Shown one piece after another: positions 4,731 through 63,670 of a stretch of DNA of 64,000 bases. The stretch is from the NCBI GenBank assembly GCA_031553495.1, contig JAVBLN010000045.1, positions 10,174 to 74,173 on the forward strand, in the 5' to 3' direction. Under the pieces are notes generated by a model. That model saw nothing but the letters and a program-made list of their open reading frames with translations, did no database searches and was not told the DNA's origin. Every line of letters starts with the position of its first letter. The stretch's first letter is position 1. Position numbers and translations under genes: made by a program. The stretch is from Flavihumibacter sp. GTDB taxonomy: Bacteria > Bacteroidota > Bacteroidia > Chitinophagales > Chitinophagaceae.

Positions 4731-4763
4731 GAACTACCGGCAGTTCAGGTTTTGATTATCTAC

Positions 4764-6488: not shown

Positions 6489-6524
6489 GATCAATGTTTT
6501 TATTATAAACATCAAAATTAAAAA

Positions 6525-7436: not shown

Positions 7437-7492
7437 TTCACTAAATTTTAAATTCTCTTTTATTATTAATAAGCACAATAATCGGTTCGTGC

Positions 7493-7843
7493 TTTTTATT
7501 ATGATACCGGCATTTGTGCTACTATTAAGCATCGTTGTGTCACTCACTTCAACTTTTAGTTCTTTAATCAGCTATACTACATGCAGCATAAGTTTATGCA
7601 TGAATGCTATTGGGCAGCCTCATCCCCGGCCCTTCTCCAAAGGAAAAGGGAGCCCGGCGCACAAAGCGGATATTCGTGGTCACAACAATTCTTTCACCAT
7701 TCATCCTTACCCGTTTTTAGTGGCTCATGCATCTCTCACTCATAACTCATAACTCACTACTCGATGAATAGCATTACTACCGTACAAGTGAGTGACACAA
7801 CGATGCTTAATAGTAGCAATACCGCTGGTTCCCACACAAAAAA
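7493..7843. repeat. Inverted doublet of repeat units (F 7493-7572, R 7765-7843, both V1) with mosaic spacer
   Basis: Left unit ...ccggcatttgtgctactattaagcatcgttgtgtcactcacttc...; right unit gaatagcattactaccgtacaagtgagtgacacaacgatgcttaatagtagcaataccgctgg. The spacer and right unit (7601-7843) are collinear with the 15137-15383 part of doublet 15074-15383, including the cctcatccccggcccttctccaaaggaaaagggagcc, attcgtggtcacaa and ctcataactcataactca modules. Confidence 0.9.
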
Positions 7844-7931
7844 TCTTTGCACATTTTCATGCTGTATAAAGTAAAAAATAAAGAACTAAATTCAATAGCA
7901 GCAGCTACTGCAGGAATTTTGTCAGCAATTT

Positions 7932-8744
7932 CTATATCACCCAGTTCAATGGTTCATTATAATCTTTTTTATCTTTCACTATTACCACAGGTTGATGATA
8001 TGCCACACTATAAGCCGGCACACTGTATGTGATAAAACAGTTGCCGCCAATTACCGATTCGCGCCCAATTACAGTATCGCCGCCAAGTATAGTACTGTTG
8101 GCATAAATAATCACACCATCTTCAATAGTAGGATGGCGCTGCCCTGTGAGCGTTTTCTTTACAGCCAACGCACCAATGGTAACACCCTGATACAACTTCA
8201 CATTCTTACCTATAACGGTTGTTTCACCAATCACTATACCGGTTCCGTGATCAATAATAAAAGGCACGCCAATAGTGGCACCGGGATGAATATCGATGCC
8301 TGTTACGGAGTGCGCCCATTCGGTAATAATGCGCGGCACTATGGGCAATTTTAACTGACATAATTTATGAGCGATCCTATATGCCGCCACCGCTAAAAAA
8401 CCGGGATATGTAATGATCACTTCATCAATGCTTTTAGCTGCCGGATCAAACTCCAGTATAGCGTTTGCATCTTCTACCAGCTTTTCTTTTATCTCATTAA
8501 GTGATGCCAGGAACGGATCGCAAATATTTGCTTCGTAGTATTTACTTTTCTCATCGAATGAATACAATATATCCAGCAAGCTATTTTTTAATGCCTCGGC
8601 CTTGCGCTGATGCCGGTTTAAAAAAGCCTGCTCATTTTCCACGATCGGAAAAAGATAATTGATCACTTCCTGTGCAAATTGAATCACCGCCTCTTTTTGA
8701 GGAATGCTTTTACTTAATAAATATCCCGGATACTGACTGGCCAT
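7932..8744 (-). CDS. cysE: Serine O-acetyltransferase
   Basis: 270-aa ORF with ATG at 8744. Left-handed beta-helix hexapeptide repeats (GATIGVPFIIDHGTGIVIGETTVIGKNVKLYQGVTIG...HPTIEDGVIIYANSTILGG) follow an alpha-helical SAT N-domain. It lies between cobA and cysK. Confidence 0.8.
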   Translation of the reverse strand: MASQYPGYLLSKSIPQKEAVIQFAQEVINYLFPIVENEQAFLNRHQRKAEALKNSLLDILYSFDEKSKYYEANICDPFLASLNEIKEKLVEDANAILEFDPAAKSIDEVIITYPGFLAVAAYRIAHKLCQLKLPIVPRIITEWAHSVTGIDIHPGATIGVPFIIDHGTGIVIGETTVIGKNVKLYQGVTIGALAVKKTLTGQRHPTIEDGVIIYANSTILGGDTVIGRESVIGGNCFITYSVPAYSVAYHQPVVIVKDKKDYNEPLNWVI

Positions 8745-8755
8745 ACTTTTTCAAT

Positions 8756-10309: not shown

Positions 10310-10370
10310 TATTGCAAAATTCTGATTTTATTTTAAGACGCTGCCAGAGTTATTTTTAAAATTTTGATCA

Positions 10371-10458
10371 GCAACCTAATGTCGCCATGAAATACTACCG
10401 TACAAGTGAGTGACACAACGATGATGCCATGAAAAGCTAATGCCGGCACCAAAAAAAA
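10371..10458 (-). repeat. Repeat core unit, R orientation, subtype V4 (TTTCATGGC-flanked)
   Basis: gcaacctaatgtcgccatgaaatactaccgtacaagtgagtgacacaacgatgatgccatgaaaagctaatgccggcacc followed by an A-run. It sits in the cysI to cobA gap. Confidence 0.85.
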
Positions 10459-10516
10459 TCAAATGATTTTTATGAATGCCACAAATCAAGTGTACAATAA
10501 TACCTAATACAACTTC

Positions 10517-12223
10517 CTACCTGTGAAAATTTTCTGTCGCGCTTTTATACTCTATGATTTTCTTCCTTACCAAAAAATCTCCGAAATGTTCTTCACTATT
10601 TTTCTCAGTTGCGTATTGCGCAATGAGTGGACCCAGTGTTGTTAAAATTTCTTCCTCATTTAATGATTCCTTATATAATACATTCATCCTGTCTCCATTA
10701 AACGAAGCTCCCAAATACAGGTTGTACTTGCCGGGGGCACGCCCCACAAAACCTATTTCACCTAAATAGGGCCTTGCACAACCATTGGGACAGCCCGTCA
10801 TTCGTATTGTTACAGGTTGCTTTTGCAAATTATGCATACCTAACAATGCTTCAATTTTATCAACCAGTTCGGGCAAATACCTTTCCCCTTCCGCATTTGC
10901 AAGCGGGCACACATTTAAAGCAACACAAGCCAAAGAATGCAAGCGCAATGGCGTTTTATCCTGCTGCTGATGAATATTGTACCGCAGCAATAATTGTTCT
11001 ATCAGCTCTTTTTTCTGATCGCTGATATTTCCCAATACAACATTTTGGTTACCTGTCAATCGAAAATCACCATCACTGATCTTGGCAATTTCACGAAGCC
11101 CGGTCCTTAAAGGATATGCTTCAGTATCTTTTACTCTTCCACCTTCCACAAACAAAGTAATAAACCATTTTCCGTTCGCACCCTTCACCCATCCGTAGCT
11201 ATCGCCGTTGGTAATAAAAGTAAACGGTTTCGCGGGTTCCAATTTGTAACCTATTCTCTTGTGTAATTCTTCAATTAAAAAATCCAACCCAATTCTTTCT
11301 ATAGTATATTTCAATCTTGACAACCGCCTGTTTTCACGATTGCCATAATCGCGTTGTATTGTTAAAATTTTTTCACACACATCAACAGTTCTTTCTAACG
11401 GCACAAAGCCAATAACATTGCCGATTCGCGGATGTGTGGCGGTGTCACCAAAAGTCATTCCCATACCACCACCCACGCTAATATTGAAACCGGTTAATTT
11501 TTTGTTTTCTTCAATGGCTATCAATCCCAGGTCATGCGCAAACACATCCGTATCATTATATGGCGGTATCGCAAATGTTATCTTGAATTTGCGAGGCAGG
11601 TATACTTTCCCATATACCGGTTCTTCCACTTCTTCTGTTAGTCCGTTACCTCCTACTTCCTCATCGTTCAACCAAATTTTATAATAAGAAGTTGTTTTAG
11701 GATTCAGGTGATCGCTTACCTGCCGGGCTATGCGCTGCACATCATCATGAATATAACTTGTGTGCGGATTCACCGTATTCATCACATTCCGGTTCACATC
11801 GCCACAAGCGGCTATGGTACTTAAAAGCGCTTCATTAATTTCCTTTATTGTTGCCTTTAAATTATGCTTCAATATACCATGCAATTCAAACGCCTGGCGT
11901 GTAGTAAGCTTCAATGTAGGCATACCGTATTTACTAGCCAGCTCATCCAGTTGCAACCATTGCCCGGGTGTGGCAATACCACCCGGCACTCGCACCCGTA
12001 TCATGAATGAGTACAACGGTTCCAGCTTTTGCGCTTTGCGTTCTTTATCCAACTCACGATCACTCTGCACATACGACCCATGAAATTTTATGAGTTGTTG
12101 ATCCTGAGCAAACAAATTTCCCGTCACTTCATTCTGAAGACTCTCGGGCAGCGTACCACGCAGGTATTCGCTTTTCTCTTTTATATGTTCTACTTCAGAA
12201 AGTTTATTTTTATCCTCATTCAT
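10517..12223 (-). CDS. cysI: Assimilatory sulfite reductase (NADPH) hemoprotein beta-component
   Basis: The track start 12232 is a TTG; the first ATG is at 12223 (MNEDKNKLSEVEHIK). Nitrite/sulfite reductase siroheme/4Fe-4S motifs ACVALNVCPLANAE and TGCPNGCARPYLGEIG are present. Confidence 0.9.
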   Translation of the reverse strand: MNEDKNKLSEVEHIKEKSEYLRGTLPESLQNEVTGNLFAQDQQLIKFHGSYVQSDRELDKERKAQKLEPLYSFMIRVRVPGGIATPGQWLQLDELASKYGMPTLKLTTRQAFELHGILKHNLKATIKEINEALLSTIAACGDVNRNVMNTVNPHTSYIHDDVQRIARQVSDHLNPKTTSYYKIWLNDEEVGGNGLTEEVEEPVYGKVYLPRKFKITFAIPPYNDTDVFAHDLGLIAIEENKKLTGFNISVGGGMGMTFGDTATHPRIGNVIGFVPLERTVDVCEKILTIQRDYGNRENRRLSRLKYTIERIGLDFLIEELHKRIGYKLEPAKPFTFITNGDSYGWVKGANGKWFITLFVEGGRVKDTEAYPLRTGLREIAKISDGDFRLTGNQNVVLGNISDQKKELIEQLLLRYNIHQQQDKTPLRLHSLACVALNVCPLANAEGERYLPELVDKIEALLGMHNLQKQPVTIRMTGCPNGCARPYLGEIGFVGRAPGKYNLYLGASFNGDRMNVLYKESLNEEEILTTLGPLIAQYATEKNSEEHFGDFLVRKKIIEYKSATENFHR

Positions 12224-12234
12224 TTTAGACAAAT

Positions 12235-12445
12235 CATTGAATTATTGAATCATTGATTTCCAAATTATGGCATCCATCACATTACCCTCATTTTCAAACG
12301 CATTTCTAAATTCATTTTCACATTTTCACATTACCAAAATTTGTTCAAACCAAATAAGCAAAGCCATTCACACTGCATTTTCAAATTTTCAAATCAGCAC
12401 ATTTTCAAATTCATTTCAACATTTCCACATTTTCACATTTCTACA
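12235..12445. repeat. Short-period module block (AATCATTGA array then about 15 copies of a CATTTTCA-like array) filling the cysJ-cysI spacer
   Basis: atcattgaattattgaatcattga, then ...cattttcacattttcacattacc...cattttcaaattttcaaatcagcacattttcaaattcatttcaacatttccacattttcacatttctacat. Confidence 0.85.
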
Positions 12446-14317
12446 TTAATACACGTCTTCCTGCAACCTTCCTGCCTTTATCATTTCTTTCATAAAATGA
12501 ACAGCCTCTTCGTGGCTGATGGCAGCATGCTTTTCTACAATTTCAATCAGCGTATTTCTTACATCTCTTGCCATTTGTTTTCCATCGCCGCATATATAAA
12601 CATGAGCGCCATCCTTTATCCAACTGTATATTTCATCCGTATGTTGCGCCATTCTGTGTTGTACATATACTTTGTTCTCCGTATCACGTGAAAAAGCAGT
12701 GTTCATTTGCGTTAGTGTACCGATTTTTAAATGTCGTTGCCATTCGAGCTGATACAGAAAATCCGTAGTAAAATGACGATCTCCAAAAAACAACCAGCTT
12801 TTTCCTTTTGCGCCGGTAACGCTTCTTTCCTCTACAAAAGCACGGAACGGCGCTATGCCTGTTCCCGGACCAATCATTATAATAGGAGTACTGTCATCCT
12901 GCGGCAAACGAAACGATTCATTCTTTTCAATAAATAAATTAACGGTATCGCCCACACTAATTTCATCTGCTACAAAATTCGAGCAAACTCCTTTTCGCTC
13001 ACGTCCCCGGTTTTCATACAATACCTTTCCGATTGTAAGGTGTACTTCTTCTTCATGCTCTTTTATGGATGAGGCAATGGAATACATTCTCGGCTGCAAT
13101 GGAAGCGCTATATCTACAAATTCTTCAGCAGAAATGGCGGGAGCATATTCTTGTATAATATCCAACACGTCTTTTCCATATAATACAGATGTAAGCTCCT
13201 TCTTGTTTTCCAGTAACTTTTCCAAGGCTGCAGCGCTTTGTACAATCCTTTTTTCCTTAACATACTTCAGTACATTTTCAAGAAAAACACCGGACACGGT
13301 GGTAAGTTCTTTATGATGTATTAAAATCTCCTCCAGTGTCAGCAATTGATCTTTAAAGGCATGCATGGAGGAGGCATCCCATTTTGTAAATGACAAGATC
13401 TCTGCCACCAGCGCACTTGAATTCTTTGCATATACCCCAACCGTATCGCCGGGCTCATAGGTAAGTCCGCTTCCTTCCAGCGAAAACTCTACATGATAAG
13501 TTTGTTTTTGCGAACCTCGTCCATTTAATTGAATTTTCTCAAGTACTGTTGCCGCAAAAGGATTTTTCCGGCTGTACGAAATCTTTTTTGCAGCTTTTTC
13601 TACTCCTGCTATAGCAGGCTTTTTCGCAATACCATTTCCATTGCCGCTATTGATTTGCGATTGCAGTTTTGCGGAAATTTCCTCTATCCATTTTTCAGCG
13701 GTTTCTTCAAAGTCAACATCAGCGTCGGTTCTGTCCATCAGTCTTTCAGCGCCCAGCTCCGCGAAGCGCTTATCAAAATCTTTTCCGGTTTGGCAAAAGT
13801 TCACATAGCTCTGATCGCCAAGAGCAAGCACTGCATATTTCAGACCCGGAATAGCAGGAGACTTACGGTTATGAACAAACGCATGCAAATCTTCCGCAGC
13901 CGGTGGAGGATCACCTTCGCCATGCGTACTTACAATTACAAGCAGGTATTTTTCATTTTTTAGGGAAGCGCCGTTGTACTTGTTCATATCCTGGAGCGCC
14001 ACCATAAAACCTTTAGCAGTAAGCTTTTCCTGCAACGATTGTGCAATGCTTTTACTATTACCGCTTTTTGATCCGAATAGGATGGTAACAGGAATCTGCG
14101 AAATATCACTTTTCTCTGCGGGTGCCGTAGCTTCCTGCACTCCGGGAAACTGGTTCAATAATTCAAGAAGTTGGCGATTCGCCTGGTTCAGGCCGGTTAA
14201 ATAACCAGCCAGCCATTGCAATTGCGGAGGTTCAAAACTCCGCAATAACTGTTGCACCTGCTGTTTTTCGGAAGCGGTAAAAAGAGGCGACGTTATGGTG
14301 AATTGATCGTTACTCAT
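12446..14317 (-). CDS. cysJ: Assimilatory sulfite reductase (NADPH) flavoprotein alpha-component
   Basis: 623-aa ORF. Flavodoxin-like FMN domain (ILFGSKSGNSKSIA, STHGEGDPP), FAD/NADPH domain (RMYSIASS, GPGTGIAPFRAF) and C-terminal LQEDVY. Confidence 0.9.
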   Translation of the reverse strand: MSNDQFTITSPLFTASEKQQVQQLLRSFEPPQLQWLAGYLTGLNQANRQLLELLNQFPGVQEATAPAEKSDISQIPVTILFGSKSGNSKSIAQSLQEKLTAKGFMVALQDMNKYNGASLKNEKYLLVIVSTHGEGDPPPAAEDLHAFVHNRKSPAIPGLKYAVLALGDQSYVNFCQTGKDFDKRFAELGAERLMDRTDADVDFEETAEKWIEEISAKLQSQINSGNGNGIAKKPAIAGVEKAAKKISYSRKNPFAATVLEKIQLNGRGSQKQTYHVEFSLEGSGLTYEPGDTVGVYAKNSSALVAEILSFTKWDASSMHAFKDQLLTLEEILIHHKELTTVSGVFLENVLKYVKEKRIVQSAAALEKLLENKKELTSVLYGKDVLDIIQEYAPAISAEEFVDIALPLQPRMYSIASSIKEHEEEVHLTIGKVLYENRGRERKGVCSNFVADEISVGDTVNLFIEKNESFRLPQDDSTPIIMIGPGTGIAPFRAFVEERSVTGAKGKSWLFFGDRHFTTDFLYQLEWQRHLKIGTLTQMNTAFSRDTENKVYVQHRMAQHTDEIYSWIKDGAHVYICGDGKQMARDVRNTLIEIVEKHAAISHEEAVHFMKEMIKAGRLQEDVY

Positions 14318-15073: not shown

Positions 15074-15383
15074 TTTTTTTGGGAACCGGCTTTAGTGGTA
15101 CTATTAAGCATCGTTGTGTCACTCACTTGTACGGTAGTAATGCTATTGGGCAGCCTCATCCCCGGCCCTTCTCCAAAGGAAAAGGGAGCCGACGCACAAA
15201 GCGGAAATTCGTGGTCACAATAATTCTTTCTCCATTCATCTTTACGCGTTTTAAGCGGCTCATGCATCTCTCACTCATAACTCATAACTCAAAACTCACT
15301 ACTCAATGAATAGCATTCCTACTGTACAAGTGAGTGACACAACGATGCTTAATAGTAGCACTACCGCCCGTCCCAAAAAAATA
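15074..15383. repeat. Inverted doublet of repeat units (F 15074-15151, R 15305-15383, both V1) with mosaic spacer
   Basis: tttttttgggaaccggctttagtggtactattaagcatcgttgtgtcactcacttgtacggtagtaatgctattgggc ... gaatagcattcctactgtacaagtgagtgacacaacgatgcttaatagtagcactaccgcccgtccc followed by an A-run. It lies in the divergent rrf2/fhs region. Confidence 0.9.
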
Positions 15384-17385: not shown

Positions 17386-17418
17386 ATACAATGCAATGTT
17401 ATGATCTATGAAAAGAAT

Positions 17419-17760
17419 ATTTGTGGGCCGGGCGATAGAATAAGCATTAAGCTTTTCTTGCGTCGCACTCTTGTACGTTTGGTTCGCTATTCGGCGCTAA
17501 TATGCAAATTAATATTTTCATACAATGGAATTAATATATAGCCGCAATCAAAGGTATAAAACGAAATAAGAATACTTATTTACAGTGTTTATTCAGGGTC
17601 TGCAAGACAACTTATTATTCTTTAAAACAACCTCTAAAATGCGAATTTCCGCTGCTGTCATTAATAAAGAATACTGCCCCTAAATCGTTGAATAGAATTC
17701 CCTTTGCTGAAGTCACAGTAGTGCAAAAGCTTAATCAGGGCGCTACCCGCAATCGGGCCG
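17419..17760. repeat. Degenerate inverted doublet (F 17419-17496 subtype V3; R 17688-17760 strongly diverged)
   Basis: F unit: tttgtgggccgggcgatagaataagcattaagcttttcttGCGTCGCactcttgtacgtttggttcgctattcggc. R unit: ttgaatagaattccctttgctgaagtcacagtagtgcaaaagcttaatcagggcgctacccgc, where the core heptamer is lost. Confidence 0.55.
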
Positions 17761-21012: not shown

Positions 21013-21094
21013 TATTAATATGGAACCGGCAGTTGAGCCCTGATCTGGCTTCTGTTGTGTCACTCACTTGTACTGTTGTAATTCTATTGAGCGA
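21013..21094 (+). repeat. Repeat core unit, F orientation (V1 tail, V2-type hairpin apex)
   Basis: ttattaatatggaaccggcagttgagccctgatctggcttctgttgtgtcactcacttgtactgttgtaattctattgagcgag. Hairpin: CGGCAG-UU-GAGCC-CUGAUCU-GGCUU-CUGUUG. Confidence 0.9.
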
Positions 21095-21170
21095 GTGAGG
21101 AGTTGGCAGCGGAGAAGCTAACAAGTAACTAAAATAAAAATCGAAGCTATATAAGACTACTGTCACCGGT

Positions 21171-22307: not shown

Positions 22308-22383
22308 CAATTTTTTCTGCAAAATAATTTATTCTTTTGATAGTGGGCAGTTGGCATCAGAGAGATGTCAGAGAACAGTGTCT

Positions 22384-22466
22384 TGCCGAATAGAATTACT
22401 TCAGCACAAGAGTGCGACGCAACGGCCGTTCCATAGTAATTCAAATGTTGGGCTCATAATAAAAAC
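22384..22466 (-). repeat. Repeat core unit, R orientation, subtype V3
   Basis: gccgaatagaattacttcagcacaagagtGCGACGCaacggccgttccatagtaattcaaatgttgggctcataataaaaacc. Differs from 57958-58038 by 3 substitutions and 1 indel. Confidence 0.9.
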
Positions 22467-22659
22467 CTGATTAATTACAATTCCTATAAATAACTAATAG
22501 CTGCTATTGACTTTGCGCATAATACTCTCCGTTAGTTTCATTAACAGCCATTATTTGTTGCCGGTATACCTCAATATAGCGCTGCACTACGCACACAACA
22601 ATGGAATGCTCCATTCACATTTCTCTAATCAATAAACACTTTTAATTTTCAACACCCAA

Positions 22660-26206: not shown

Positions 26207-26485
26207 TTTTAAAACTTTGCATAAAATATTGCGCCTTAAATTGTTTTAACCGAAACAATTAAATGATAAAATCGAGCATTATATCATTTGTAGAAATTTT
26301 GGGACAATTAAAAGAGTTAAAAATTGAAAGTTGAAAGTGCTGGTAATATCTAAATGAATTCACTCAAAACTCATTACTCATAACTTTTTTGAAACCGGCG
26401 ATATTGCTACTATTAAGCATCGTTGTGTCACTCACTTGTGCGGTTGTAATACTATTGGGCAATTTGGTTGTTGGTTGTTGGCGTT

Positions 26486-26589
26486 TAACCACAAGGGACA
26501 CGACAAGAGGCACAAAGGCCACAAGGATTGGTAGCAATTCAGCCTACCCTTGTGTGCCCTGTGCTTCCCTTTGTGGCCCTTGTGGTTAA
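26486..26589. repeat. Long imperfect hairpin built from CACAAGG-type oligo repeats
   Basis: TTAACCACAAGGGACACGACAAGAGGCACAAAGGCCACAAGG - 21 nt - CCTTGTGTGCCCTGTGCTTCCCTTTGTGGCCCTTGTGGTTAA. The outer 13 bp are perfect and the inner arm is about 70 percent complementary. Confidence 0.8.
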
Positions 26590-26620
26590 AACACTCATAA
26601 CTCAACTCATCTCTCATACT

Positions 26621-26667
26621 TTAAAAACAAAACTGCAAAATTTGAGATTAACACAAATTTTGCAGTT
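26621..26667 (-). terminator. Rho-independent terminator of the TlpA-like gene, located distal to a repeat unit
   Basis: On the minus strand: AACTGCAAAATTTG-9 nt-CAAATTTTGCAGTT (14-bp perfect stem) followed by TTGTTTTTAA. Repeat unit 26681-26758 lies between the stop codon (26778) and this terminator. Confidence 0.7.
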
Positions 26668-26777
26668 AAACTTTTCAGGGCTCAATAGCTATTCTACAGA
26701 TGAACGGAGCGTCGCAACCGAAGCCTCATCAGGGCGCTACCGCCGGCCCCATAATAACAATTTTAAAACATCAGAGG

Positions 26778-29468: not shown

Positions 29469-29605
29469 AATGAAACTTTCCTTTAAACAAATTACATTAA
29501 AAATAATTTGCAAAACTATCGAATAATCAAATTATTGAATCAATGAATTAATGAAAAGGCAAACATTAGCTTATACAGCCTGCTTCACTCATTCAATCAT
29601 TTGTC

Positions 29606-29805
29606 CAACAGCATTACCACAGTTGAACGGAGCGTCGCAACCGGTGCGCAATCAGGGCTCTGCTGCCGGCTCCATTATCAAAAATCAAAAATTAGACATT
29701 GTATAAGCCTATGCAGTAAATCGCATTTTTTTTGGGGGACGAGCCGTTGTAATACTATTCAACATCGTTGTGTCACTCACTTCAACTGTAGTAATTCTAT
29801 TCATC
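29606..29805. repeat. Back-to-back pair of repeat units in R-then-F order (R 29606-29685 V2; F 29726-29805 V1)
   Basis: caacagcattaccacagttgaacggaGCGTCGCaaccggtgcgcaatcagggctctgctgccggctccattatcaaaaa ... ttttttttgggggacgagccgttgtaatactattcaacatcgttGTGTCACtcacttcaactgtagtaattctattcatc. Confidence 0.85.
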
Positions 29806-29942
29806 AATTTGTACATCCTCACTTATTGCAAACAACACAAAATTCTGAGCCCAATTATTCTATAATTCAATCATTCAATAATTGAAAAAGGGCCATGAGC
29901 AAATCAACTCATGACCCCAAAACGATAGGCTGATAAAAAAAA

Positions 29943-31277: not shown

Positions 31278-31373
31278 AGCGTAAAAATTAGTTGATAGTT
31301 GAAAGTGCTTTTTACACTAATTGCTAGCAAAAACAAAAGCACTCATTACTCAAAACTCAAAACTCATAACTTG

Positions 31374-31458
31374 TTGAATAGCATTACTACCGTACAAGTG
31401 AGTGACACAACAGAAGCTTAATAGTAGCACTTCTGCCGGCTCCATAAAAAAATAAAAC
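31374..31458 (-). repeat. Repeat core unit, R orientation, V1 with fully compensated hairpin
   Basis: ttgaatagcattactaccgtacaagtgagtgacacaacagaagcttaatagtagcacttctgccggctccataaaaaaataaaac. The F-form hairpin is CGGCAGAAG-U-GCU-ACUAUUA-AGC-CUUCUGUUG. Confidence 0.9.
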
Positions 31459-34889: not shown

Positions 34890-34970
34890 TTTTTTTATGG
34901 GGTCAGCGGCAATGCTACTATCAGCAGCCGTTGCCACGCTCGCTTGTACAATTGTAATGCTATTGGGCGC
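34890..34970 (+). repeat. Repeat core unit, F orientation, diverged V1 (core GCCACGC)
   Basis: tttttttatggggtcagcggcaatgctactatcagcagccgttgccacgctcgcttgtacaattgtaatgctattgggcgc. Hairpin: CAGCGGC-AA-UGCU-ACUAUC-AGCA-GCCGUUG. Confidence 0.75.
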
Positions 34971-35044
34971 TGAATTTCGAACTTTCCTGCTAATTTTGGC
35001 AGTAAGCACTAATATTCTATTAATCTAATAAAACCGGTTTCACA

Positions 35045-37751: not shown

Positions 37752-37833
37752 GAACTGTTTTAGTAGGATATTTTGAATTCCGGCAGAAGCCTTTACCAGG
37801 ATCACCGTTATTTTATTTTGATCCTGCTGATTA

Positions 37834-37930
37834 CCACAGTTAATAATTGTTATACCGGCGGCGGTTTTTTATGGCATCATCGTTGCGTCGCATTCCGTTC
37901 ATCGGTAGTATTTCATGGCATCGTTGGGCC
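37834..37930 (+). repeat. Repeat core unit, F orientation, subtype V4 (core GCGTCGC)
   Basis: ccacagttaataattgttataccggcggcggttttttatggcatcatcgttGCGTCGCattccgttcatcggtagtatttcatggcatcgttgggcc. It is collinear with 60684-60780. Confidence 0.85.
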
Positions 37931-38078
37931 GAAGACACAACATTTCGCCAACAACTCTAACAGCGTCGAAGCCTTAGTAACTTAATGATCGATACGATTT
38001 GTAAGCAACATTTTTGCTTTTATTTACAAAAAGACTCATTTTTTCACATTAATTTGCAATCCATTAACTTACGCAATT

Positions 38079-38735: not shown

Positions 38736-38765
38736 AAACCGGCTTTGCGGCCGGTTTTATTTATA
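38736..38765 (+). terminator. Rho-independent terminator of frr
   Basis: AAACCGGC-tttgcg-GCCGGTTT followed by TATTTAT; the stem runs directly into the T tract. Confidence 0.7.
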
Positions 38766-38830
38766 AAACCGATTTCATTATTTTTTTACTTGCCTATCCA
38801 TTGTGATAGAACCTGTTAAATTGTACTGAT

Positions 38831-38908
38831 GATTAGAATTACTACAGTACAAGTGAGTGACACAACCGGAGCATAATCAGGGCCCAGCCGCCGGTACCCA
38901 AATAATAA
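38831..38908 (-). repeat. Repeat core unit, R orientation (V1 tail, V2-type apex)
   Basis: gattagaattactacagtacaagtgagtgacacaaccggagcataatcagggcccagccgccggtacccaaataataa. Confidence 0.85.
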
Positions 38909-40668: not shown

Positions 40669-41460
40669 GTGAGTCAACAACCAACATATCAAATTAAACT
40701 GCCGCAGTTTGAAGGCCCTTTTGATCTTTTGTTGTTTTTCATTGAAAGAGATGAACTGGATATATACAATATTCCCATTACCAAAATAATTAACGACTTT
40801 CTCGATTTTATACATTCTCAAGAGTCACTCAACATAGAGCTTTCCAGCGAATTTATTTTGTTTATTTCCACACTCATGCGCATTAAGGCAAAAATGCTAT
40901 TACCCAGAAAAGAGCTGGATGCGCAGGGAAATGAAATAGACCCGCGCCAGGAGCTTATTGATAAAATTCTTGAATACAAAAAATACAAACAGGCAGCCGC
41001 TGAAATGGCCGAAATGGAAGCCATCCGCATGCTGATGGTAAAGCGCGGCAACCTTCAAAAAGATCTATCAAGCATCGGCGAAGAAGCCGGCGAAGGCACC
41101 GAAATACAGGCAATTACACTTTTCAAACTAATGAAGGCTTTTGAAAAAGCCATGCAAAAAGTGTATGATCGTAATAATAAGCCTGTGCATACCGTGGAGC
41201 AATATAACTATACCATGGAGCGAAGCCGCGAATATATGCTGGAAACCGTTTCAAAGGAAAGAACCATGTCGTTTGAAAAAATATTTGAAATCTGCGAAAA
41301 CCGCATTCACGCTATTTTTCTTTTCCTCAGTATGCTGGAACTCGTACAAATGAAATACATGACCATTCTTGCCGGAGAAGGCAGAAACAATTTTATTGTA
41401 GAATTCAACGAAAACCGCGAAGAAGAAGACAATAATATCAATTTTGAATTGTTGACATAG
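40669..41460 (+). CDS. scpA: Segregation and condensation protein A
   Basis: 263-aa ORF with a GTG start. KLPQFEGPFDLLLFFIERDELDIYNIPITKI is the ScpA N-terminal signature. Confidence 0.85.
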   Translation: MSQQPTYQIKLPQFEGPFDLLLFFIERDELDIYNIPITKIINDFLDFIHSQESLNIELSSEFILFISTLMRIKAKMLLPRKELDAQGNEIDPRQELIDKILEYKKYKQAAAEMAEMEAIRMLMVKRGNLQKDLSSIGEEAGEGTEIQAITLFKLMKAFEKAMQKVYDRNNKPVHTVEQYNYTMERSREYMLETVSKERTMSFEKIFEICENRIHAIFLFLSMLELVQMKYMTILAGEGRNNFIVEFNENREEEDNNINFELLT

Positions 41461-41504
41461 CAGGCAACTGGCAGCAAGCATTCGCACAGTATAAAATTGT
41501 GCAA

Positions 41505-41740
41505 TTTTTTTTGGTATCAACGGTATTGCTACTATTTAGCATCGTTGTGTCACTCACTTGTGCGGTAGTAATTCTTTTCAGCAAGTTGAAGCATTCATGC
41601 GTAAATTTATACTGCGAATAGCATAGCGAGATCAATACATAAGAACACTACTGCATAATGTACAATAAAGAACAAACCGCTGAAGTGTGCGACGCAACAA
41701 AAGTTCAATAGTAGCAATGCAGCCGGGTCCATAAAAAAAA
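41505..41740. repeat. Inverted heterotypic doublet, 236 bp (F 41505-41582 V1; R 41663-41740 V3)
   Basis: ttttttttggtatcaacggtattgctactatttagcatcgttgtgtcactcacttgtgcggtagtaattcttttcagc ... caataaagaacaaaccgctgaagtgtGCGACGCaacaaaagttcaatagtagcaatgcagccgggtccataaaaaaaa. Same length and architecture as 53558-53793. Confidence 0.9.
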
Positions 41741-41821
41741 CACCTAAAAAATAACCTGTTCAAATATATTATCAACTCCGGCATCATGAAAACGATTGGC
41801 AGATAATTACAACCATACATC

Positions 41822-44266
41822 ATGATAAATATTCCTACTCACCTCCGGTTGCTGCTGTTATTGAGTGTTACGCTTTTACTCAACCAAGCCTGCAACAATA
41901 AGACTGCCGCGGTAACAATTACCATAGATGCGGAAAAAATTGAAAATCGCATTCCATCATTTTTATATGGCTCGTGCATTGAAGATGTAAACCACGAAAT
42001 TTATGGTGGTTTGTACGATCAAAAAATATTCGGCGAAAGTTTTGAAGAACCGGAGCCTTCACCCGAAATTGAAAATTTTACAGTGCATGAAGGCGTTTGG
42101 AAAGCAACAAATAATGAAGTTTTTGTGCTAGCATTTTCAGGAGCTAAACTTATATACAACCCCACCGATGTAACTAAAGGATATGCTGAAACAGAAATAA
42201 AATTCAATTCGAAAAACGATGGTAATGCAGGCTTTATTACCCGTGTAACAAAGCCCGGCAAAGGTGCCGACAATTTTTACGGCTATGAAATAAGCTTAAA
42301 AGCCGACGGTAAAAAAATTGTATTCGCGAAACACAAAAACAATTTTGAACATATACAGGACATAGATGTAGATTGTAATCCGCTTCAGTGGAACCGTTTG
42401 AAAGCAATGATGGACAATGGAAAAATTGAACTGCTGTTAAATGATAAAAGTGTTTTTACTTATAGTGATAATGACACGTTGCTTACATCTGGTAAAGTTG
42501 GACTGCGCACATGGAATGCGGATGTTTCATTTAAAAACGTGAAAATAAAATCCGGCAAAGGAGAAGCAACACTTTCTTTCAAAACGCCGCTGGTACTCAA
42601 TCTTAGCTCGCAATGGGATGCCATTCAAACCGGCGATAGCAAAGTGTTATTCGTACATGATACAAGAGATGCTTTTAACGGAAAGTGTTCTCAAACCGTT
42701 CAACTAATACCAAGCGATGGCAATGCGGGTGTAGCCAATAAAGGATTAAACCGCTGGGGCATTGCCGTTAGTAATGGTCAGCAATATAATGGAAGTATTT
42801 ATTTAAAAAGCAACAGCCTGGAAGGCCCTGTAACAGTGGCTTTGCAAAGTGCGGACGGGCAAATGGAATATGCCGCTAAACAAATACAAAACATTTCGAG
42901 TAAATGGGAAAAATATACTTTTGAACTTACAGCAAACAGTAGTGATACAAATGCACGCTTTGCAGTGTATTTCAACCAACCGGGAAAACTTTGGATAGAC
43001 CAGGTTACATTAATGAATACCCCAAAAGATCAATTTAAAGGTTTGCCATTTAGAAAAGATATTAGCGAAGCATTGGTAGCGCAAGGTCTTACATTTTTGC
43101 GTTACGGCGGTTCAATGATAAATGCGCCGGAATATAGGTTTAAAAAAATGATTGGCGATCCCGGTAAACGCCCGCCGTATAAAGGAACATGGTATAATTA
43201 TTCGACAAATGGTTTTGGTATAGAAGACTTCCTGAAATTTTGTGAAGCTGCAGGTTTTACCGCATCGTTTGCTGTAAACATAGAAGAAACACCGGCGGAC
43301 ATGGCTGATATGGTAGAATACCTGAATGGCCCTGCCACATCAACGTGGGGAAAGAAAAGAGCTGAAAACGGGCATCCAGCGCCTTATAATGTGAAGTATA
43401 TCGAAATAGGTAACGAAGAAGTTTTGGGTGGCGGAGATAATGCTGCGGGTTATGACCATTATATACAAAGATTCAACCTGCTTCACAATGCCATGAAAAG
43501 CAAAGACTCGTCTATTATGCTTATTAATGCTGCATGGTGGCGGCCGAAATCACCCAACATAGAAAAAGTGTTTAAAGCATTGGATGGCAAAGCCGCATAT
43601 TGGGATTATCATCCGTGGGCCGAAAATCCCGCCTGCGGAAGATATGTTGAAAGAGAATTGAAACATATGCGTGAACTGTTCCTTAAATGGAATCCCAACA
43701 CTACTATGAAATGTGCCATCTTTGAAGAAAACGGCAATATTCATAATATGCAAAGAGCGCTGGCGCACGTTAGCCTGCAAAATGCCGTTCGGAAAATGGG
43801 TGATTTTGTGTTAACATCTTGTGCTGCAAACGCGTTACAGCCCTATAAACAAAACGATAACGGCTGGGACCAGGGACAAATATTTTTTACACCAACACAG
43901 GTTTGGGGTATGCCGCCATTTTACGCACAAAAAATTGCATCTGAAAATCATTTGCCTTTAAGAGTATCATCTGCTGCAAGTAATGACACGCTGGATATTA
44001 CAGCCACCCGCGATGAAAATGGGAACAAACTAATTCTCCATATTGCCAATATTCATGAAGCGCCAATTACGGCGAGCATTACTATCAAAGGATTTGAGAA
44101 CATATCCTCCGCAAAAGCAGTTTACTTAACCGGCAAACCCGGCGATGTAAACTCCCCTGAAAAACCGGAATTTATTAGCCCAAAAACAAAAGAGCTAAAA
44201 GCGGGAAATACTGTTACGTTTGAATTTGAACCATATTCCTACACCATATTAATTTTTACAAAATAG
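41822..44266 (+). CDS. Secreted GH51-like glycoside hydrolase (alpha-L-arabinofuranosidase family) with an inserted DUF1080-like lectin/jelly-roll domain
   Basis: 814-aa ORF with a lipoprotein-like signal (LLLNQAC). SCIEDVNHEIYGGLYDQ resembles the GH51 N-terminal motif, YIEIGNEE the acid/base GNE motif, and the C-terminus a beta-sandwich. Residues ~90-240 (HEGVWKA...GLRTWNADVSFKNVKIK) resemble DUF1080. Confidence 0.6.
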   Translation: MINIPTHLRLLLLLSVTLLLNQACNNKTAAVTITIDAEKIENRIPSFLYGSCIEDVNHEIYGGLYDQKIFGESFEEPEPSPEIENFTVHEGVWKATNNEVFVLAFSGAKLIYNPTDVTKGYAETEIKFNSKNDGNAGFITRVTKPGKGADNFYGYEISLKADGKKIVFAKHKNNFEHIQDIDVDCNPLQWNRLKAMMDNGKIELLLNDKSVFTYSDNDTLLTSGKVGLRTWNADVSFKNVKIKSGKGEATLSFKTPLVLNLSSQWDAIQTGDSKVLFVHDTRDAFNGKCSQTVQLIPSDGNAGVANKGLNRWGIAVSNGQQYNGSIYLKSNSLEGPVTVALQSADGQMEYAAKQIQNISSKWEKYTFELTANSSDTNARFAVYFNQPGKLWIDQVTLMNTPKDQFKGLPFRKDISEALVAQGLTFLRYGGSMINAPEYRFKKMIGDPGKRPPYKGTWYNYSTNGFGIEDFLKFCEAAGFTASFAVNIEETPADMADMVEYLNGPATSTWGKKRAENGHPAPYNVKYIEIGNEEVLGGGDNAAGYDHYIQRFNLLHNAMKSKDSSIMLINAAWWRPKSPNIEKVFKALDGKAAYWDYHPWAENPACGRYVERELKHMRELFLKWNPNTTMKCAIFEENGNIHNMQRALAHVSLQNAVRKMGDFVLTSCAANALQPYKQNDNGWDQGQIFFTPTQVWGMPPFYAQKIASENHLPLRVSSAASNDTLDITATRDENGNKLILHIANIHEAPITASITIKGFENISSAKAVYLTGKPGDVNSPEKPEFISPKTKELKAGNTVTFEFEPYSYTILIFTK

Positions 44267-46929: not shown

Positions 46930-47195
46930 AATAGTGGAAAGTTGAAAATTGAAAGTTGTATAAATGGATTCTCACTCATAACTCACAACGCATAACTTTT
47001 TTGTAACCGGCGGTATTGCTACTATTAAGCATCGTTGTGTCACTCACTTGTACGGCAGGAATGCTATTGAGCGAGTTATGAGTTATGAGTTTTGCGTAAT
47101 AAGTGCTTTTGTTTTTGCTTGCAATCAGTGCATAAAGCATTCTCAATTCTCAATTCTCCACTAAATAAGCACTTTCAACTTTCAATTCTCCATTT
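46930..47195. repeat. Nested palindromic mosaic: TTGAAAGT arm / CTCATAACTCA arm / core unit / inverted CTCATAACTCA arm / spacer module / inverted TTGAAAGT arm
   Basis: gtggaaagttgaaaattgaaagttg (46934-46958) pairs with gcactttcaactttcaattctcc (47169-47191). ctcactcataactcacaacgcataac (46971-46996) pairs with gttatgagttatgagttttgcg (47076-47097). Core unit 46997-47075 sits at the apex. Confidence 0.8.
46997..47075 (+). repeat. Repeat core unit, F orientation, canonical V1
   Basis: ttttttgtaaccggcggtattgctactattaagcatcgttgtgtcactcacttgtacggcaggaatgctattgagcgag. Hairpin pairs: 47008-47013 with 47032-47037, and 47017-47020 with 47028-47031. Confidence 0.95.
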
Positions 47196-47235: not shown

Positions 47236-47883
47236 ATGGGAGAAGCATTTATTGATTATGATTTACAGGAACTAACAATTCATTCTGATTTCTTTTTTTA
47301 CGGAGATGAAGCAAATGAGCCACTTGCAAAGCAAATTGCCGCCGATATACAAAACCAATGGAATGAAACAGAAAAAATAATTATAATAAAAAAAGTCCCA
47401 TTTAAAGTTCGCTTTTTTATTGAAGGTTATTATACTCAAAATCTGCAACCTGAAGATGTTTGGTATAACGATAATCCGAAAAACAATTACTTCCGCATAG
47501 AAAAATATTCAAACATCGATATTTCGTTTGTTGATGACATAGGCTCCAACACAGGTTATTTTAAATTAGACAACATACTCAATCATTCTACCACAGCCGC
47601 GCATGAATATGGCCACACGCTTGGATTACTTCATCCTCAAATACTTGATATAAGAGGAGAAGGCATTCCCGGAATTATGTATCCACGGGGAACTATTTGC
47701 GACCCGCTGTTTCAGTATGATCCGAATGCGCAACCGAATGCCAGCGGCGGCACGCTTAATCCTTTGTTCAGAAAAGTATCGCAGATAGACGTTGACAACT
47801 TGCGACTGCATCGTTTATCATTTAAAAACGGAAGAGCTATTGTAGGAGAGTTCACCAGTATATTTCATGAAAGACACGGATAA
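47236..47883 (+). CDS. Small leaderless zinc metalloprotease (metzincin-type HExxHxxGxxH)
   Basis: 215-aa ORF with motif AAHEYGHTLGLLH. No signal peptide or TM segment is apparent. It is a monocistronic gene between repeat-filled gaps. Confidence 0.65.
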   Translation: MGEAFIDYDLQELTIHSDFFFYGDEANEPLAKQIAADIQNQWNETEKIIIIKKVPFKVRFFIEGYYTQNLQPEDVWYNDNPKNNYFRIEKYSNIDISFVDDIGSNTGYFKLDNILNHSTTAAHEYGHTLGLLHPQILDIRGEGIPGIMYPRGTICDPLFQYDPNAQPNASGGTLNPLFRKVSQIDVDNLRLHRLSFKNGRAIVGEFTSIFHERHG

Positions 47884-47970
47884 ATGATTGAATCATTGAA
47901 ATTATGCAAAGCATTCTTTCGTGTATTGATGCTATACGCTGTATAAGTTTGCGCATGAATGTTTCACTTT

Positions 47971-48050
47971 GCTCAATAGCATTACTACCGCACAAGTGAG
48001 TGACACAACGATGCTTAATAGTAGCAATACCGTTGATGCCAAAAATAAAA
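47971..48050 (-). repeat. Repeat core unit, R orientation, V1, with extension module 47933-47970
   Basis: gctcaatagcattactaccgcacaagtgagtgacacaacgatgcttaatagtagcaataccgttgatgccaaaaataaaa. The preceding tacgctgtataagtttgcgcatgaatgtttcac is the reverse complement of the module following F units at 53637-53670. Confidence 0.9.
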
Positions 48051-48130: not shown

Positions 48131-48212
48131 TCATTTACTTTCATTCTCAAATTTTCAAATCAACTCATTTTCAAATTAATTTTCACATTCCCTCATTTCC
48201 ACATTATTTCAC
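48131..48212. repeat. CATTTTCA-type short-period module block
   Basis: tcatttactttcattctcaaattttcaaatcaactcattttcaaattaattttcacattccctcatttccacattatttcac. This is the same module type as 12288-12445. Confidence 0.75.
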
Positions 48213-49969: not shown

Positions 49970-49973
49970 ATAA

Positions 49974-50060
49974 GTGGAGAGTGGAGAGTTGAGAATGGAG
50001 AGTTGAGAATGCTATAGATATTAGATAAAGCTGAAACAAAAACACTCATAACTCACAACC
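49974..50060. repeat. Module block (GAGAGTTGAGAAT array, spacer module, CTCATAACTCA) adjoining unit 50062-50141
   Basis: gtggagagtggagagttgagaatggagagttgagaatgct...aaacaaaaacactcataactcacaaccc. The module order matches 31291-31373 and mirrors 47076-47192. Confidence 0.75.
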
Positions 50061-50061
50061 C

Positions 50062-50141
50062 GCTCAATAGCATTCCTACCGTACAAGTGAGTGACACAAC
50101 AGAAGCCCCATCAGGGCTTTACTGTTGGTCACATAATAAAA
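50062..50141 (-). repeat. Repeat core unit, R orientation, V1 tail with fully Watson-Crick hairpin
   Basis: gctcaatagcattcctaccgtacaagtgagtgacacaacagaagccccatcagggctttactgttggtcacataataaaa. The hairpin is CAACAG/CUGUUG plus AAGCCC/GGGCUU (50097-50127). Confidence 0.9.
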
Positions 50142-51526: not shown

Positions 51527-51690
51527 TAACCACAAGGGTCACAATGGTTTTTCACAAGGGCACAAAAATTTTTGAAGTACCAAGGGAAATTCGTGATCAC
51601 AACAATTCTTTTCAGCTTCCCTCTATATTTTCACTTGCAATTAGTGCATAAGGCACTCCCAACTCTCAATTCTCAACTCAATAAGGTTCG
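51527..51690. repeat. Module block without core unit (CACAAGGG, attcgtgatcacaacaattc, agtgcataaggcac, ctcaattctcaactc)
   Basis: ttaaccacaagggtcacaatggtttttcacaagggcacaaa...aaattcgtgatcacaacaattcttttc...gcaattagtgcataaggcactcccaactctcaattctcaactc. It overlaps the 3' end of the GH13 CDS (51641-51690). Confidence 0.75.
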
Positions 51691-53446: not shown

Positions 53447-53557
53447 ATAGTTCGTTTTCTTACATAGTGTTTACAGATTTAATCATATCTCCGCGGCTTC
53501 GGCATCTTATACCACATGCCTGTTTATTATATTAATGCAGTAAAAAATGCGCAGTTA

Positions 53558-53793
53558 TTTTTTATTGAACCAGCGGTATTGCTACTATTAAGCATCGTTG
53601 TGTCACTCACTTGTGCGGTTGAATTTCTATTCAGCCATGTGAAACATTCATGCCAAATTTATACAGCGTTTAGTACAGCATGCTAAACAAATAAAACGCA
53701 TTCCGCATTATGCACAATAGCGAACAAACCGCTGAAGAGTGCGACGCAACGGCTGCTTAATAGTAGCACTACCGCCCGGCTCATAATAAAAAA
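53558..53793. repeat. Inverted heterotypic doublet, 236 bp (F 53558-53636 V1; R 53714-53793 V3)
   Basis: ttttttattgaaccagcggtattgctactattaagcatcgttgtgtcactcacttgtgcggttgaatttctattcagcc ... acaatagcgaacaaaccgctgaagagtGCGACGCaacggctgcttaatagtagcactaccgcccggctcataataaaaaa. Confidence 0.9.
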
Positions 53794-53818
53794 CAATTTA
53801 CGTTATACTGTTCATAAA

Positions 53819-57785: not shown

Positions 57786-58038
57786 TATTATGAGCCCAAC
57801 GGTATTGATACTATTAAGCATCGTTGCGTCGCACTCTTCAGCTTTTGATTCTTTATTGGGCAATGACTAATAAAATTCAAAAGTCAAACAAAGAGCAGTC
57901 CGGTGTTGAAATTATGATTTACTAATAAGAACAACATTTAGTGCCTTATTATTAATTGCCGAATAGAATTACTTCAGCACAAGAGTGCGACGCAACGGCT
58001 GTTCCATAGTAATTCAAATGCCGGGCTCATAATAAAAC
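57786..58038. repeat. Inverted homotypic doublet (F 57786-57861 V3; R 57958-58038 V3)
   Basis: tattatgagcccaacggtattgatactattaagcatcgttGCGTCGCactcttcagcttttgattctttattgggc ... gccgaatagaattacttcagcacaagagtGCGACGCaacggctgttccatagtaattcaaatgccgggctcataataaaacc. Confidence 0.9.
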
Positions 58039-58163
58039 CAAATCTTAAATACAGTTCATATTAATAACCAGTTATTGGATTATTGGATTATGTTTTGCTG
58101 TTATCTCTAACACAGATTTCTGATATCTGATCTCTTTACCGCCTACTGTCAACTGCCAACTAC

Positions 58164-60446: not shown

Positions 60447-60683
60447 CTTGATTCTTTTTTTGTGCTCTTACAAGTACAGTTTAATTTTAAGGTCAAAGTA
60501 ATTCCTATAACTTACCAGCCATTACTCATAGAAGCCGCATGAGTAAGCATTTCCAGATATCCGCAGAAGTTTTTATTTTGGTTCTTGTTATTTAATTTAG
60601 CTATAATGAAAGCAGAGAGTTTTCATGGCACAAACGACAACTTTTATCAAGGTGTTTATACTCTATTTTTTTCTTGATGAATA

Positions 60684-60780
60684 CCGCAGTTGATAATTAT
60701 TGTACCGGCTTCAGTTTTTCATGGCATCATCGTTGTGTCACTCACTTGTACAGTAGTATTTCATGGGAACATTGGGTTGC
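60684..60780 (+). repeat. Repeat core unit, F orientation, subtype V4
   Basis: ccgcagttgataattattgtaccggcttcagtttttcatggcatcatcgttgtgtcactcacttgtacagtagtatttcatgggaacattgggttgc. A partial extra tttcatggcacaaacgacaac lies at about 60625-60648. Confidence 0.85.
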
Positions 60781-60815
60781 ACAAATAAAACTTTACTAAC
60801 AATTCAATCAGCCTT

Positions 60816-63404: not shown

Positions 63405-63551
63405 ATAATGAGTGGTTTATTATTTTTATACGGGAGCAGGCAATACTGATCATTCATAATGTTAATTCCCCCTTCAACATCTTCACAGTATTACCTGCAT
63501 TTCATTTGATCGTAGGTACATAGTGTTTGCAATAATTATTTCTGTTACACG

Positions 63552-63627
63552 TTGCCGAATAGTATTACTACCGTACAAGTGAGTGACACAACGATGCTTA
63601 ATAGTAGCAATACCGCCGGTTCCATAA
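63552..63627 (-). repeat. Repeat core unit, R orientation, canonical V1
   Basis: ttgccgaatagtattactaccgtacaagtgagtgacacaacgatgcttaatagtagcaataccgccggttccataac. Confidence 0.95.
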
Positions 63628-63670
63628 CATACTCCTTCATTGGTTTACTGCCGGAAATATCTCAGCCATT

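Follow-up and report, generated by a model that had tools for sequence, protein, structure and literature searches.

An interspersed intergenic repeat of Chitinophagaceae that is copied as single arms and as inverted pairs

In a 64-kb stretch of a Flavihumibacter sp. genome (64,000 nucleotides, here termed the window), a doublet of two inverted sequence units at positions 41505-41740 belongs to a family-wide, non-coding, interspersed repeat of Chitinophagaceae that is not specific to this genome. Both single units (arms) and entire pairs of arms have been copied to new intergenic sites, with 79–96% identity between copies. We estimate, with a probability of roughly 0.55, that these arms form a non-autonomous repeat family that is mobilised in trans and works like BIME/REP, REPIN or ERIC elements. 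As far as the searchable literature and Rfam show, the repeat is previously undescribed. The core sequences are absent from the searchable literature, in which no MITEs or repeats are described for Chitinophagaceae, and a search of the entire window against Rfam 15 yielded zero matches at the gathering score. When E-values up to 10 were allowed, the matches of the window stretch were all unrelated (an enteroviral 3' UTR element and a lncRNA region) and those of locus L090 were mostly of generic miRNA or snoRNA type, all far below threshold.

To detect arms in the window, we combined a repeat search with an iterated nhmmer profile. This resulted in 29 arms (E-values from 1e-8 to 4e-25), which are copies of one unit of about 80–90 nt and which are all intergenic, located between long ORFs. 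Of the 30 intergenic regions that measure 50 bp or more, 20 contain arms, and the arms make up 26% of the intergenic DNA of the window. Intergenic regions with an arm have a mean length of 408 bp compared to 84 bp for those without. Arm-bearing spacers are thus about five times longer, which would make the arms a major driver of genome architecture if our reading is true. The genes of the window are ordinary housekeeping genes, including a sulfate-assimilation operon, GatB, RRF, RbfA, ScpA, formate-tetrahydrofolate ligase and ABC transporters, the G+C content is about 39%, and a search for tRNA and tmRNA genes found none. Written in the F sense, where the T-run comes first, the window consensus is TTTTTTATGGAACCGGCGGTATTGCTACTATTAAGCATCGTTGTGTCACTCACTTGTACGGTAGTAATGCTATTGAGC. 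The arms differ in their cores, which we term V1 (GTTGTGTCACTCACTTGTAC, found in 17 window arms), V2 (GTTGCGTCGCACTCTTGTAC) and V3 (GTTGCGACGCTCCGTTCAAC).

The first-pass annotation had reported eight loci with two inverted units, seven in F-then-R and one in R-then-F order, and all eight were recovered there by nhmmer. The focal doublet (41505-41740) consists of a V1 arm on the plus strand (41506-41595), a 53-nt spacer and a V2 arm on the minus strand (41737-41649), with the T-runs facing outward, and sits between a gene of the SMC_ScpA family (40669-41460; Pfam label) and the gene at 41822-44266. Its sister doublet (53558-53793) has the same V1/V2 composition, with a V1 arm at 53559-53648 (plus strand), a spacer and a V2 arm at 53789-53699 (minus strand). 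Together with the V1/V3 doublet at 26385-26757, these two bear out the claim of three heterotypic doublets. The F-then-R loci further include two V1/V1 doublets at 7496-7836 (previously 7493-7843) and 15075-15381 (previously 15074-15383), and a V2/V2 doublet at 57786-58035. The last F-then-R doublet, at 17418-17748 (previously 17419-17760), is flanked by convergent genes and combines a V2 left arm with a degenerate right arm (E-value 1.6e-8). As this right arm lacks an A-run, the outer boundary of a T-run on the left and an A-run on the right, said to be present always, is found in seven of the eight loci; a T-run is also part of the family consensus from other genera. The R-then-F pair at 29590-29813 (previously 29606-29805), with a V3 arm on the minus strand followed by a V1 arm on the plus strand, is the sole pair with inward T-runs, and 48 nt separate the T-run ends. 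Most simply, this pair consists of two adjacent single arms. Folded as single strands, the doublets form long hairpins, with z-scores of -7 to -8 for 53558-53793 and of -2.5 for 41505-41740.

Comparing doublets with each other, we observed that the doublet is a real architectural unit that is copied whole, with its spacer included. The focal doublet and its sister had been described as both exactly 236 bp long and collinear. They are indeed collinear through the spacer (41487-41742 compared to 53538-53795; 79% identity in a 261-nt alignment), whereas their exact length depends on the boundaries. Since the homology passes the left T-run by about 18 nt, ending just after the A-run, and includes 8 gap positions, the equal length depends on boundary choice and is partly due to indels that cancel by chance. 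For 7601-7843 and 15137-15383, an identity of about 90% had been estimated by eye; the alignment gives a slightly higher value of 94% column identity, with one 1-nt and one 7-nt indel. Similarly, locus L090 contains two collinear doublets of 149 bp. Single arms are copied as well: the V2 arm at 22376-22462 (minus strand) matches the right arm of the doublet at 57786 (57946-58035) with 96% identity, and this match ends sharply at the inner edge of the arm, whereas the outer flank is only about 70% identical.

Apart from that copy, single arms occur throughout the window. Two are located on the minus strand within the cys operon, a V3 arm at 4644-4729 and a V1 arm of the TTTTCATGGCATC subfamily at 10368-10457. 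The latter subfamily is also represented by the V1 arm at 60694-60784 (plus strand), and close to it is the variable part, TTTTTTATGGCATC, of a V2-like arm at 37844-37933 (plus strand). An arm with the variant core GCCACGC was found by nhmmer at 34892-34978 (plus strand). The other single arms have V1 cores. The arm at 21015-21101 (plus strand) is antisense to both neighbouring genes, the one at 50050-50139 (minus strand) lies between convergent genes, and the one at 38820-38905 (minus strand) is found 3' of the RRF gene's own terminator. The top-scoring copy of all is at 63541-63628 (minus strand; E-value 3.8e-25). The arms at 46997-47085 (plus strand) and 47958-48047 (minus strand) bracket the gene at 47236-47883. 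The second of these has no partner arm and matches the left half of the focal doublet over 120 nt at 89%, i.e. over the arm and the first 30 nt of the spacer. We considered arm-bracketed genes as possible cargo or transposases; all of them encode housekeeping or membrane proteins.

The arms share a fixed layout: a T-run followed by G, then CCRRC, then 23±1 variable nucleotides, then CATCGTTG-YGWCRC-WCWC-TTGTAC. The final C of CCRRC is found 8 nt after the G of the T-run (G9 to C17) in 168 of 170 arms, and the spacing from C17 to G40 is 22–24 nt in 165 of 170, so that the sequence in between is free and its length is fixed. Conservation falls abruptly 3' of the core, and across the family the arm module is about 60–90 bp long. 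Within the core, positions Y44 and R48 covary (T..A in 141 arms, C..G in 53 and 2 exceptions, in a sample seeded with V1), which preserves the palindromic symmetry of the heptamer G-Y-G-W-C-R-C. This heptamer is too short and thus does not form a hairpin. A hairpin proposed by hand (P1/P2) is 85% paired in the window arms; we did not rely on it, as local folding across the family equals that of shuffled sequence. There is no excess of local folding over shuffles (z about 0; -0.05 for arm region 12-46), and RNAalifold found no consensus structure on either strand, for 28 window arms or for all 196 arms of our alignment. The arm is thus a spaced sequence motif and, as predicted from sequence, most simply a protein-recognition site rather than a REP-like hairpin.

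Scanning one genome per species, we found the exact 20-nt core TCGTTGTGTCACTCACTTGT in at least 104 loci. Among the matches listed, nearly all loci come from Chitinophagaceae or Chitinophagales, including Ferruginibacter, Segetibacter, Niabella, Deminuibacter, Foetidibacter, Polluticaenibacter, Ilyomonas and many MAGs. A locus assigned to Methylophilus has a G+C content of 38% and is probably mis-binned. The 196 aligned arms were obtained by a profile search of the window and the loci listed. When the seeding arm of each locus is excluded, the loci listed contain about one arm per 12 kb compared to one per 2.2 kb in the window, where other genomes were sampled as 8-kb pieces and this genome as 64 kb. 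Furthermore, arms are present in myovirus-like IMG/VR contigs with genes for a major head-protease fusion, tail sheath, tape measure and RecT. The phage arms sit in the intergenic spaces of the structural modules; those of L117 and L121 apparently follow the same gene, as judged by ORF size and order. These phage contigs suggest a possible route for spread between hosts. The plasmid and phage nucleotide records contained no match to the repeat.

The arrangement of pairs is uniform across the family. For arms at most 400 bp apart in the window and the loci listed, the T-runs face outward in 25 of 26 pairs and none is in tandem; the loci from other genomes alone contribute 18 of 18 outward pairs. 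As random orientation would result in about 25% for each of the four arrangements, the pair arrangement is not due to chance. The shortest pairs span 143–172 bp, with arms that abut at their core-proximal ends. When comparing the variable 35 nt between the two arms of a doublet, we observed a mean similarity of 0.55 compared to 0.54–0.61 for random arms, although the similarity reaches 77–83% in some window doublets. Outside the conserved motifs, paired arms from other genera are no more alike than random arms, and they thus do not appear to be true terminal inverted repeats. The idea that V1 and V2 represent a left and a right end found no statistical support. Because the V1 core served as the seed of our genome scan, the counts of core types from other genera are biased, and a preference for V1/V2 heterotypic pairs was not significant once this bias was allowed for. 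Among arms sampled without bias, about 68% have V2-like cores, so chance alone is expected to produce mixed V1/V2 pairs. About three quarters of the arms in the window and the loci listed are single, and no recognisable remnants of a partner were found beside them; this would be awkward if the pair were the only mobile unit.

The positions of the arms suggest insertion into intergenic DNA irrespective of the neighbouring genes. Only 3 of about 170 arms in the window and the loci listed are inside ORFs. Single arms are found in sense (35) and antisense (30) orientation and in divergent (19) and convergent (18) regions; this random orientation relative to genes argues against terminators, promoters, leaders and operators. 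A filled and an empty site can be compared for trpE- and trpG-like genes, which were read from translations. In L018, a 75-nt arm lies between the stop codon and the next start codon, whereas the same genes overlap as TGAGATG in L068, with no arm. For the window genome, a metagenome scan and a protein search found relatives with at most 76% identity, plus one identical Logan contig. The relatives L112 (a Logan contig), Pinibacter soli L113 and L108 share the gene order but lack arms, and their spacers are shorter; the L112 orthologue of the protein encoded at 47236-47883 is 76% identical. Thus, presence/absence differences exist at orthologous sites. These filled and empty sites are all compared between genera or species and may also reflect deletion. 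Target-site duplications were not detectable, with a mean flanking match of 1.71 nt compared to 1.54 ± 0.28 nt for permuted flanks (24 doublets). We found no shared motif in the flanks outside the T-run, and no arms that had been split as targets of an IS.

Under the reading that we prefer, the fixed geometry and the symmetric heptamer would mark a protein-recognition site, and the arms would be mobilised by a trans-acting enzyme encoded elsewhere. We found no candidate gene for a transposase, RAYT or TnpA/TnpB in the window, in the 104 listed genome loci or in the viral loci. Searches for an autonomous IS with matching ends in the window, in about 744 kb of genome loci, in the viral loci and in the plasmid and phage records were negative. 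Mobilisation that leaves no target-site duplication would proceed without staggered target cleavage and may be of an HUH/single-stranded DNA type or of a recombinase type rather than a classical DDE cut-and-paste. We infer this mechanism from the fixed geometry, the symmetric heptamer and the absent target duplication. The pair may be the preferred substrate or the product of the enzyme. Copies that are kept at orthologous sites suggest that the arms are tolerated or secondarily useful, as are REP/BIME and ERIC elements. If this is true, then Chitinophagaceae, a large and ecologically important family in soil and water, have their own high-copy intergenic repeat system. This would have consequences for gene calling, for operon prediction and for the assembly and binning of their genomes, and the arms would be a ready marker for strain typing. 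The combination of fixed geometry, outward pairs, lack of target duplication and presence in phages would also offer a tractable entry to a new mobilising or binding protein.

The conservation of arms fits the main alternative reading. We found 13 orthologous groups among the 104 loci listed, and arms have been retained at orthologous sites in L003/L028 and in L038/L071. In these cases, the variable part is 82–83% identical compared to a random-arm baseline of 54 ± 9%, and the flanking coding DNA is about 72–75% identical. In addition, genera with coding DNA that is only about 73% identical share an identical 20-nt core. An invariant core and orthologous retention point to selection or homogenisation, and this fits a host function as well as selfish spread. 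It is possible, though on the whole unlikely, that the arm is primarily a site for an abundant host protein (nucleoid-associated, chromosome-organising or RNA-processing), where selection would keep the arms, pairs would act cooperatively and spread would be secondary. The fixed spacing, the preserved symmetry of the heptamer and the higher identity of the duplicated arm compared to its outer flank are consistent with such a site, and the independence of gene orientation fits a role at the DNA level. However, the window has 29 arms in 64 kb, whereas 32 kb of syntenic DNA from the closest relatives contains none, and such variation in copy number is hard to square with an essential general function. 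Arms at some shared sites differ in core type and orientation (e.g. L033 compared to L042), which indicates turnover, and arms are also found in phage structural operons. The mobile-repeat and the host-function readings could both hold, as is thought for REP and ERIC elements.

A more specific version of mobility, which we put forward tentatively and consider rather improbable, is an unrecognised mobilisation system. It would recognise the spaced bipartite motif instead of a hairpin or a terminal inverted repeat, would move single arms or convergent pairs without target duplication, and would travel between chromosomes and phages; the two covarying heptamer types, GTGTCAC and GCGWCGC, would then reflect two specificities of co-evolving enzymes. 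Shuttling between chromosomes and phages would explain why the 20-nt core is identical across genera.

The first-pass annotation had placed the doublets among MITE-, REPIN- or PATE-like composites. This holds insofar as the arms are interspersed, non-coding repeats of an insertion type whose doublets are copied as a unit, whereas none of the named classes is supported as stated: the family lacks defining features of DDE-type MITEs, of REP/RAYT systems and of PATEs. Among the known systems that come close are BIME/REP elements of Enterobacteria and REPINs of Pseudomonas, which are likewise very abundant and strictly intergenic, and occur singly or as inverted head-to-head pairs. Their pairs, too, often combine two sequence types and are copied as a unit, they lack target-site duplications, and they form mosaics with short motifs. 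As in REPINs, inverted pairs behave like a replicating unit here, with 25 of 26 pairs outward and whole doublets duplicated. A REP is a hairpin of 20–40 nt with a GTAG or CGTC tag. In contrast, the arms here measure 60–90 nt, contain a spaced bipartite motif and fold at chance level, and no RAYT was found. No tag is conserved beside a hairpin; CGTC occurs solely within the V2 core, and GTAG is confined to the 3' portion of window V1 arms, which is not conserved.

We therefore do not equate the family with these elements, and a true REPIN/REP-RAYT system or one derived from IS200/IS605 (PATE), in which the arms would be single-stranded DNA substrates of a Y1 HUH transposase, appears quite doubtful. 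The absent target-site duplications would agree with it. So would the contacts of CRRC with GTTG in a helix on the F strand, which tolerate G-T on one strand only; this helix shows 95.5% pairing among the window arms, where G-U alternates with A-U. Against it stand the folding results, the missing tag and the paired arms that are not complementary outside the conserved motifs. A Y1 gene was not found in about 808 kb, either by a motif scan or by tblastn searches for relatives of E. coli RAYT (4ER8) and IS608 TnpA; two weak RAYT/TnpA hits turned out to be a dihydroorotate dehydrogenase and a phage regulatory region. RAYT genes are typically present in 1–2 copies per genome, so that their absence from a sample of this size is uninformative. 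Further points in favour come from the literature: inverted head-to-head pairs also predominate in REP dimers (PMC3733652), and Bacteroidetes RAYTs with atypical repeats have been reported (Quentin et al. 2018, PMC6006769). PATEs and the ends of IS200/IS605 elements resemble the arms in leaving no target-site duplication and in that their two ends may differ, as do V1, V2 and V3. However, PATE ends carry subterminal hairpins on the same strand, and PATEs insert beside a fixed tetra- or pentanucleotide that lies 5' of the left end, neither of which is seen here; the arms are inverted, not direct, and no TnpA/TnpB was found in the window, the genome loci listed or the viral loci.

Two other classes invite comparison. 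ERIC/IRU elements are imperfect palindromes of 127 bp in Enterobacteriaceae and Vibrio, for which the mobilising agent is unknown. Similar to the arms, they are conserved in sequence across genera, differ in copy number by orders of magnitude between relatives, are intergenic (including within operons) in either orientation, and have variants with internal indels. Unlike in ERIC elements, the single arm is the commonest form here and the paired arms of other genera are not complementary outside the conserved motifs. As there is no sequence homology, the likeness to ERIC is a functional analogy and not membership. Bacterial MITEs such as Correia/NEMIS, RUP and Nezha are also small, non-coding and dispersed elements with inverted conserved ends that inflate intergenic regions; here, in contrast, there are no target-site duplications, no related autonomous IS was found, and complementary terminal inverted repeats were not evident beyond the shared motifs in other genera.

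Turning to readings without mobility, we regard it as very unlikely that the arms are multi-copy genes of a small RNA. In this model, transcription would run inward, starting on the side of the T-run; the RNA would have a stem at its 5' end and would expose the conserved 16-nt core as a single-stranded seed, and both members of a convergent pair would use one terminator between them. Such genes would be compatible with a conserved core that looks single-stranded and follows a possible small stem, and also with the independence from neighbouring genes that is expected of stand-alone genes. However, the consensus has no Bacteroidetes-type promoter (TTTG ... TAnnTTTG) at the required spacing, there is no consistent terminator 3' of the arms, Rfam gave no match, and arms lie between tightly coupled operon genes. 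The density of about one arm per 2 kb would exceed that of any small RNA family known to us.

That the arms are cis-regulatory signals of neighbouring genes (terminators, promoters or leaders) is extremely improbable: a pair, with its T-run and long hairpin, bears a superficial resemblance to a terminator, and one copy has a small hairpin just 5' of its T-run (41484-41502), but the T-run is located 5' of the arm and not 3' of a hairpin, all four gene contexts are about equally common, genes retain their own terminators beside arms (e.g. 38736-38771), and arms occur within operons and phage late operons. A terminator 5' of the T-run was rejected, as there is no consistent upstream hairpin. Promoter layouts (Bacteroidetes -33/-7, sigma-70, sigma-54 and ECF) were also rejected; their spacings do not fit the consensus and a scan revealed no excess.

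Two further candidates were discarded. A hydrophobic peptide can be read from a small ORF in the window arms, yet the frames of V1 and V2 differ and every core position is conserved. A loop resembling the CUGAUGA of a hammerhead is present in one subfamily only. Lastly, some copies carry additional sequence. The left arm of the doublet at 7496-7836 is a mosaic with an extra segment of about 43 nt after the core, and the spacer of this doublet contains a GC-rich hairpin and ACTCATA repeats. The single V1 arm at 31363-31450 (minus strand) has a 3' extension that consists of GAGTTATGAG repeats and a GTGCTTTTG...AAAGCAC module.

The arms, the 80-90 nt intergenic repeat units of the window, break up its sulfate-assimilation/cysteine operon (4644-14317, minus strand) at three gene junctions. 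This operon contains two PAPS-reductase-family genes and encodes a PLP-dependent enzyme, an acetyltransferase, a uroporphyrin methylase-HemD fusion, a sulfite reductase and a flavoprotein. At L013, an arm-bearing locus from another genome, arms are likewise found on both sides of a PLP-dependent (PALP-family) gene.

Arms were also observed between structural genes of myovirus-like phage contigs from IMG/VR, with up to three arms per contig (L116-L121). The arm-bearing IMG/VR contigs encode a major head-protease fusion, a head decoration protein, a tail sheath, a tape measure and RecT. Judging from ORF size and order, the same gene, which is not annotated in L117, apparently precedes an arm in L117 and L121.

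When comparing arms with an TTTTCATGGCATC-type variable part (37809-37964 and 60659-60812; also 10368-10457), we find that a longer common 5' homology replaces the clean T-run (37809-37889 versus 60659-60739). This variable part is also present in arms that are kept at orthologous sites in other genera (L038 and L071), and nearly so in L003 and L028; it may be close to the ancestral form of the arm. For the two arms that are 96% identical, the flanks outside the T-run are also about 70% alike over about 35 nt (22463-22500 versus 58036-58075). Either a longer segment was copied and the arm was later homogenised, or a target preference was common to both insertions.

Several intergenic regions of the window are filled by short tandem arrays with a period of 7-8 nt (1273-1344, 12232-12447, 15273-15306, 29852-29883, 31348-31371, 47139-47158, 48150-48206 and 49973-50011), whose units are TTGAATCA, TCACTCA/ACTCATA, AATCATTG, CATTTTCA, CAATAATT, ATTCTCA and AGTGGAG. 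Such arrays frequently adjoin the arms directly, and at 46969-47105 they lie on both sides of one arm, arranged as an inverted repeat. An additional repeated module, GTGCTTTTGTTTTTGCTTGCAATCAGTGCATAAAGCA, occurs 3' of some V1 arms and stands alone elsewhere in the window; its copies (47100-47169, 51628-51685 and, on the reverse strand, 31292-31340) are 84-87% identical to one another. Furthermore, the spacers of two doublets, i.e. inverted arm pairs, contain a nested GC-rich hairpin, CCCCGGCCCTTCTCCAAAGGAAAAGGGAGCCCGG (7620-7660 and 15156-15195). Similar hairpins of the CCCCTTCAGGGGG type recur intergenically in other Chitinophagaceae (L003, L028 and L066), and this GC-rich CCCCGGCCCTTCTCCAAAGGAAAAGGGAGCCCGG/CCCCTTCAGGGGG-type hairpin looks like a second repeat family that is unrelated to the arms.

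Lastly, the arm-bearing locus L061 (CALRQJ020000005.1) is labelled as a Methylophilus rhizosphaerae MAG, yet its G+C content is 38% and it carries a Chitinophagaceae arm; the contig is probably mis-binned.
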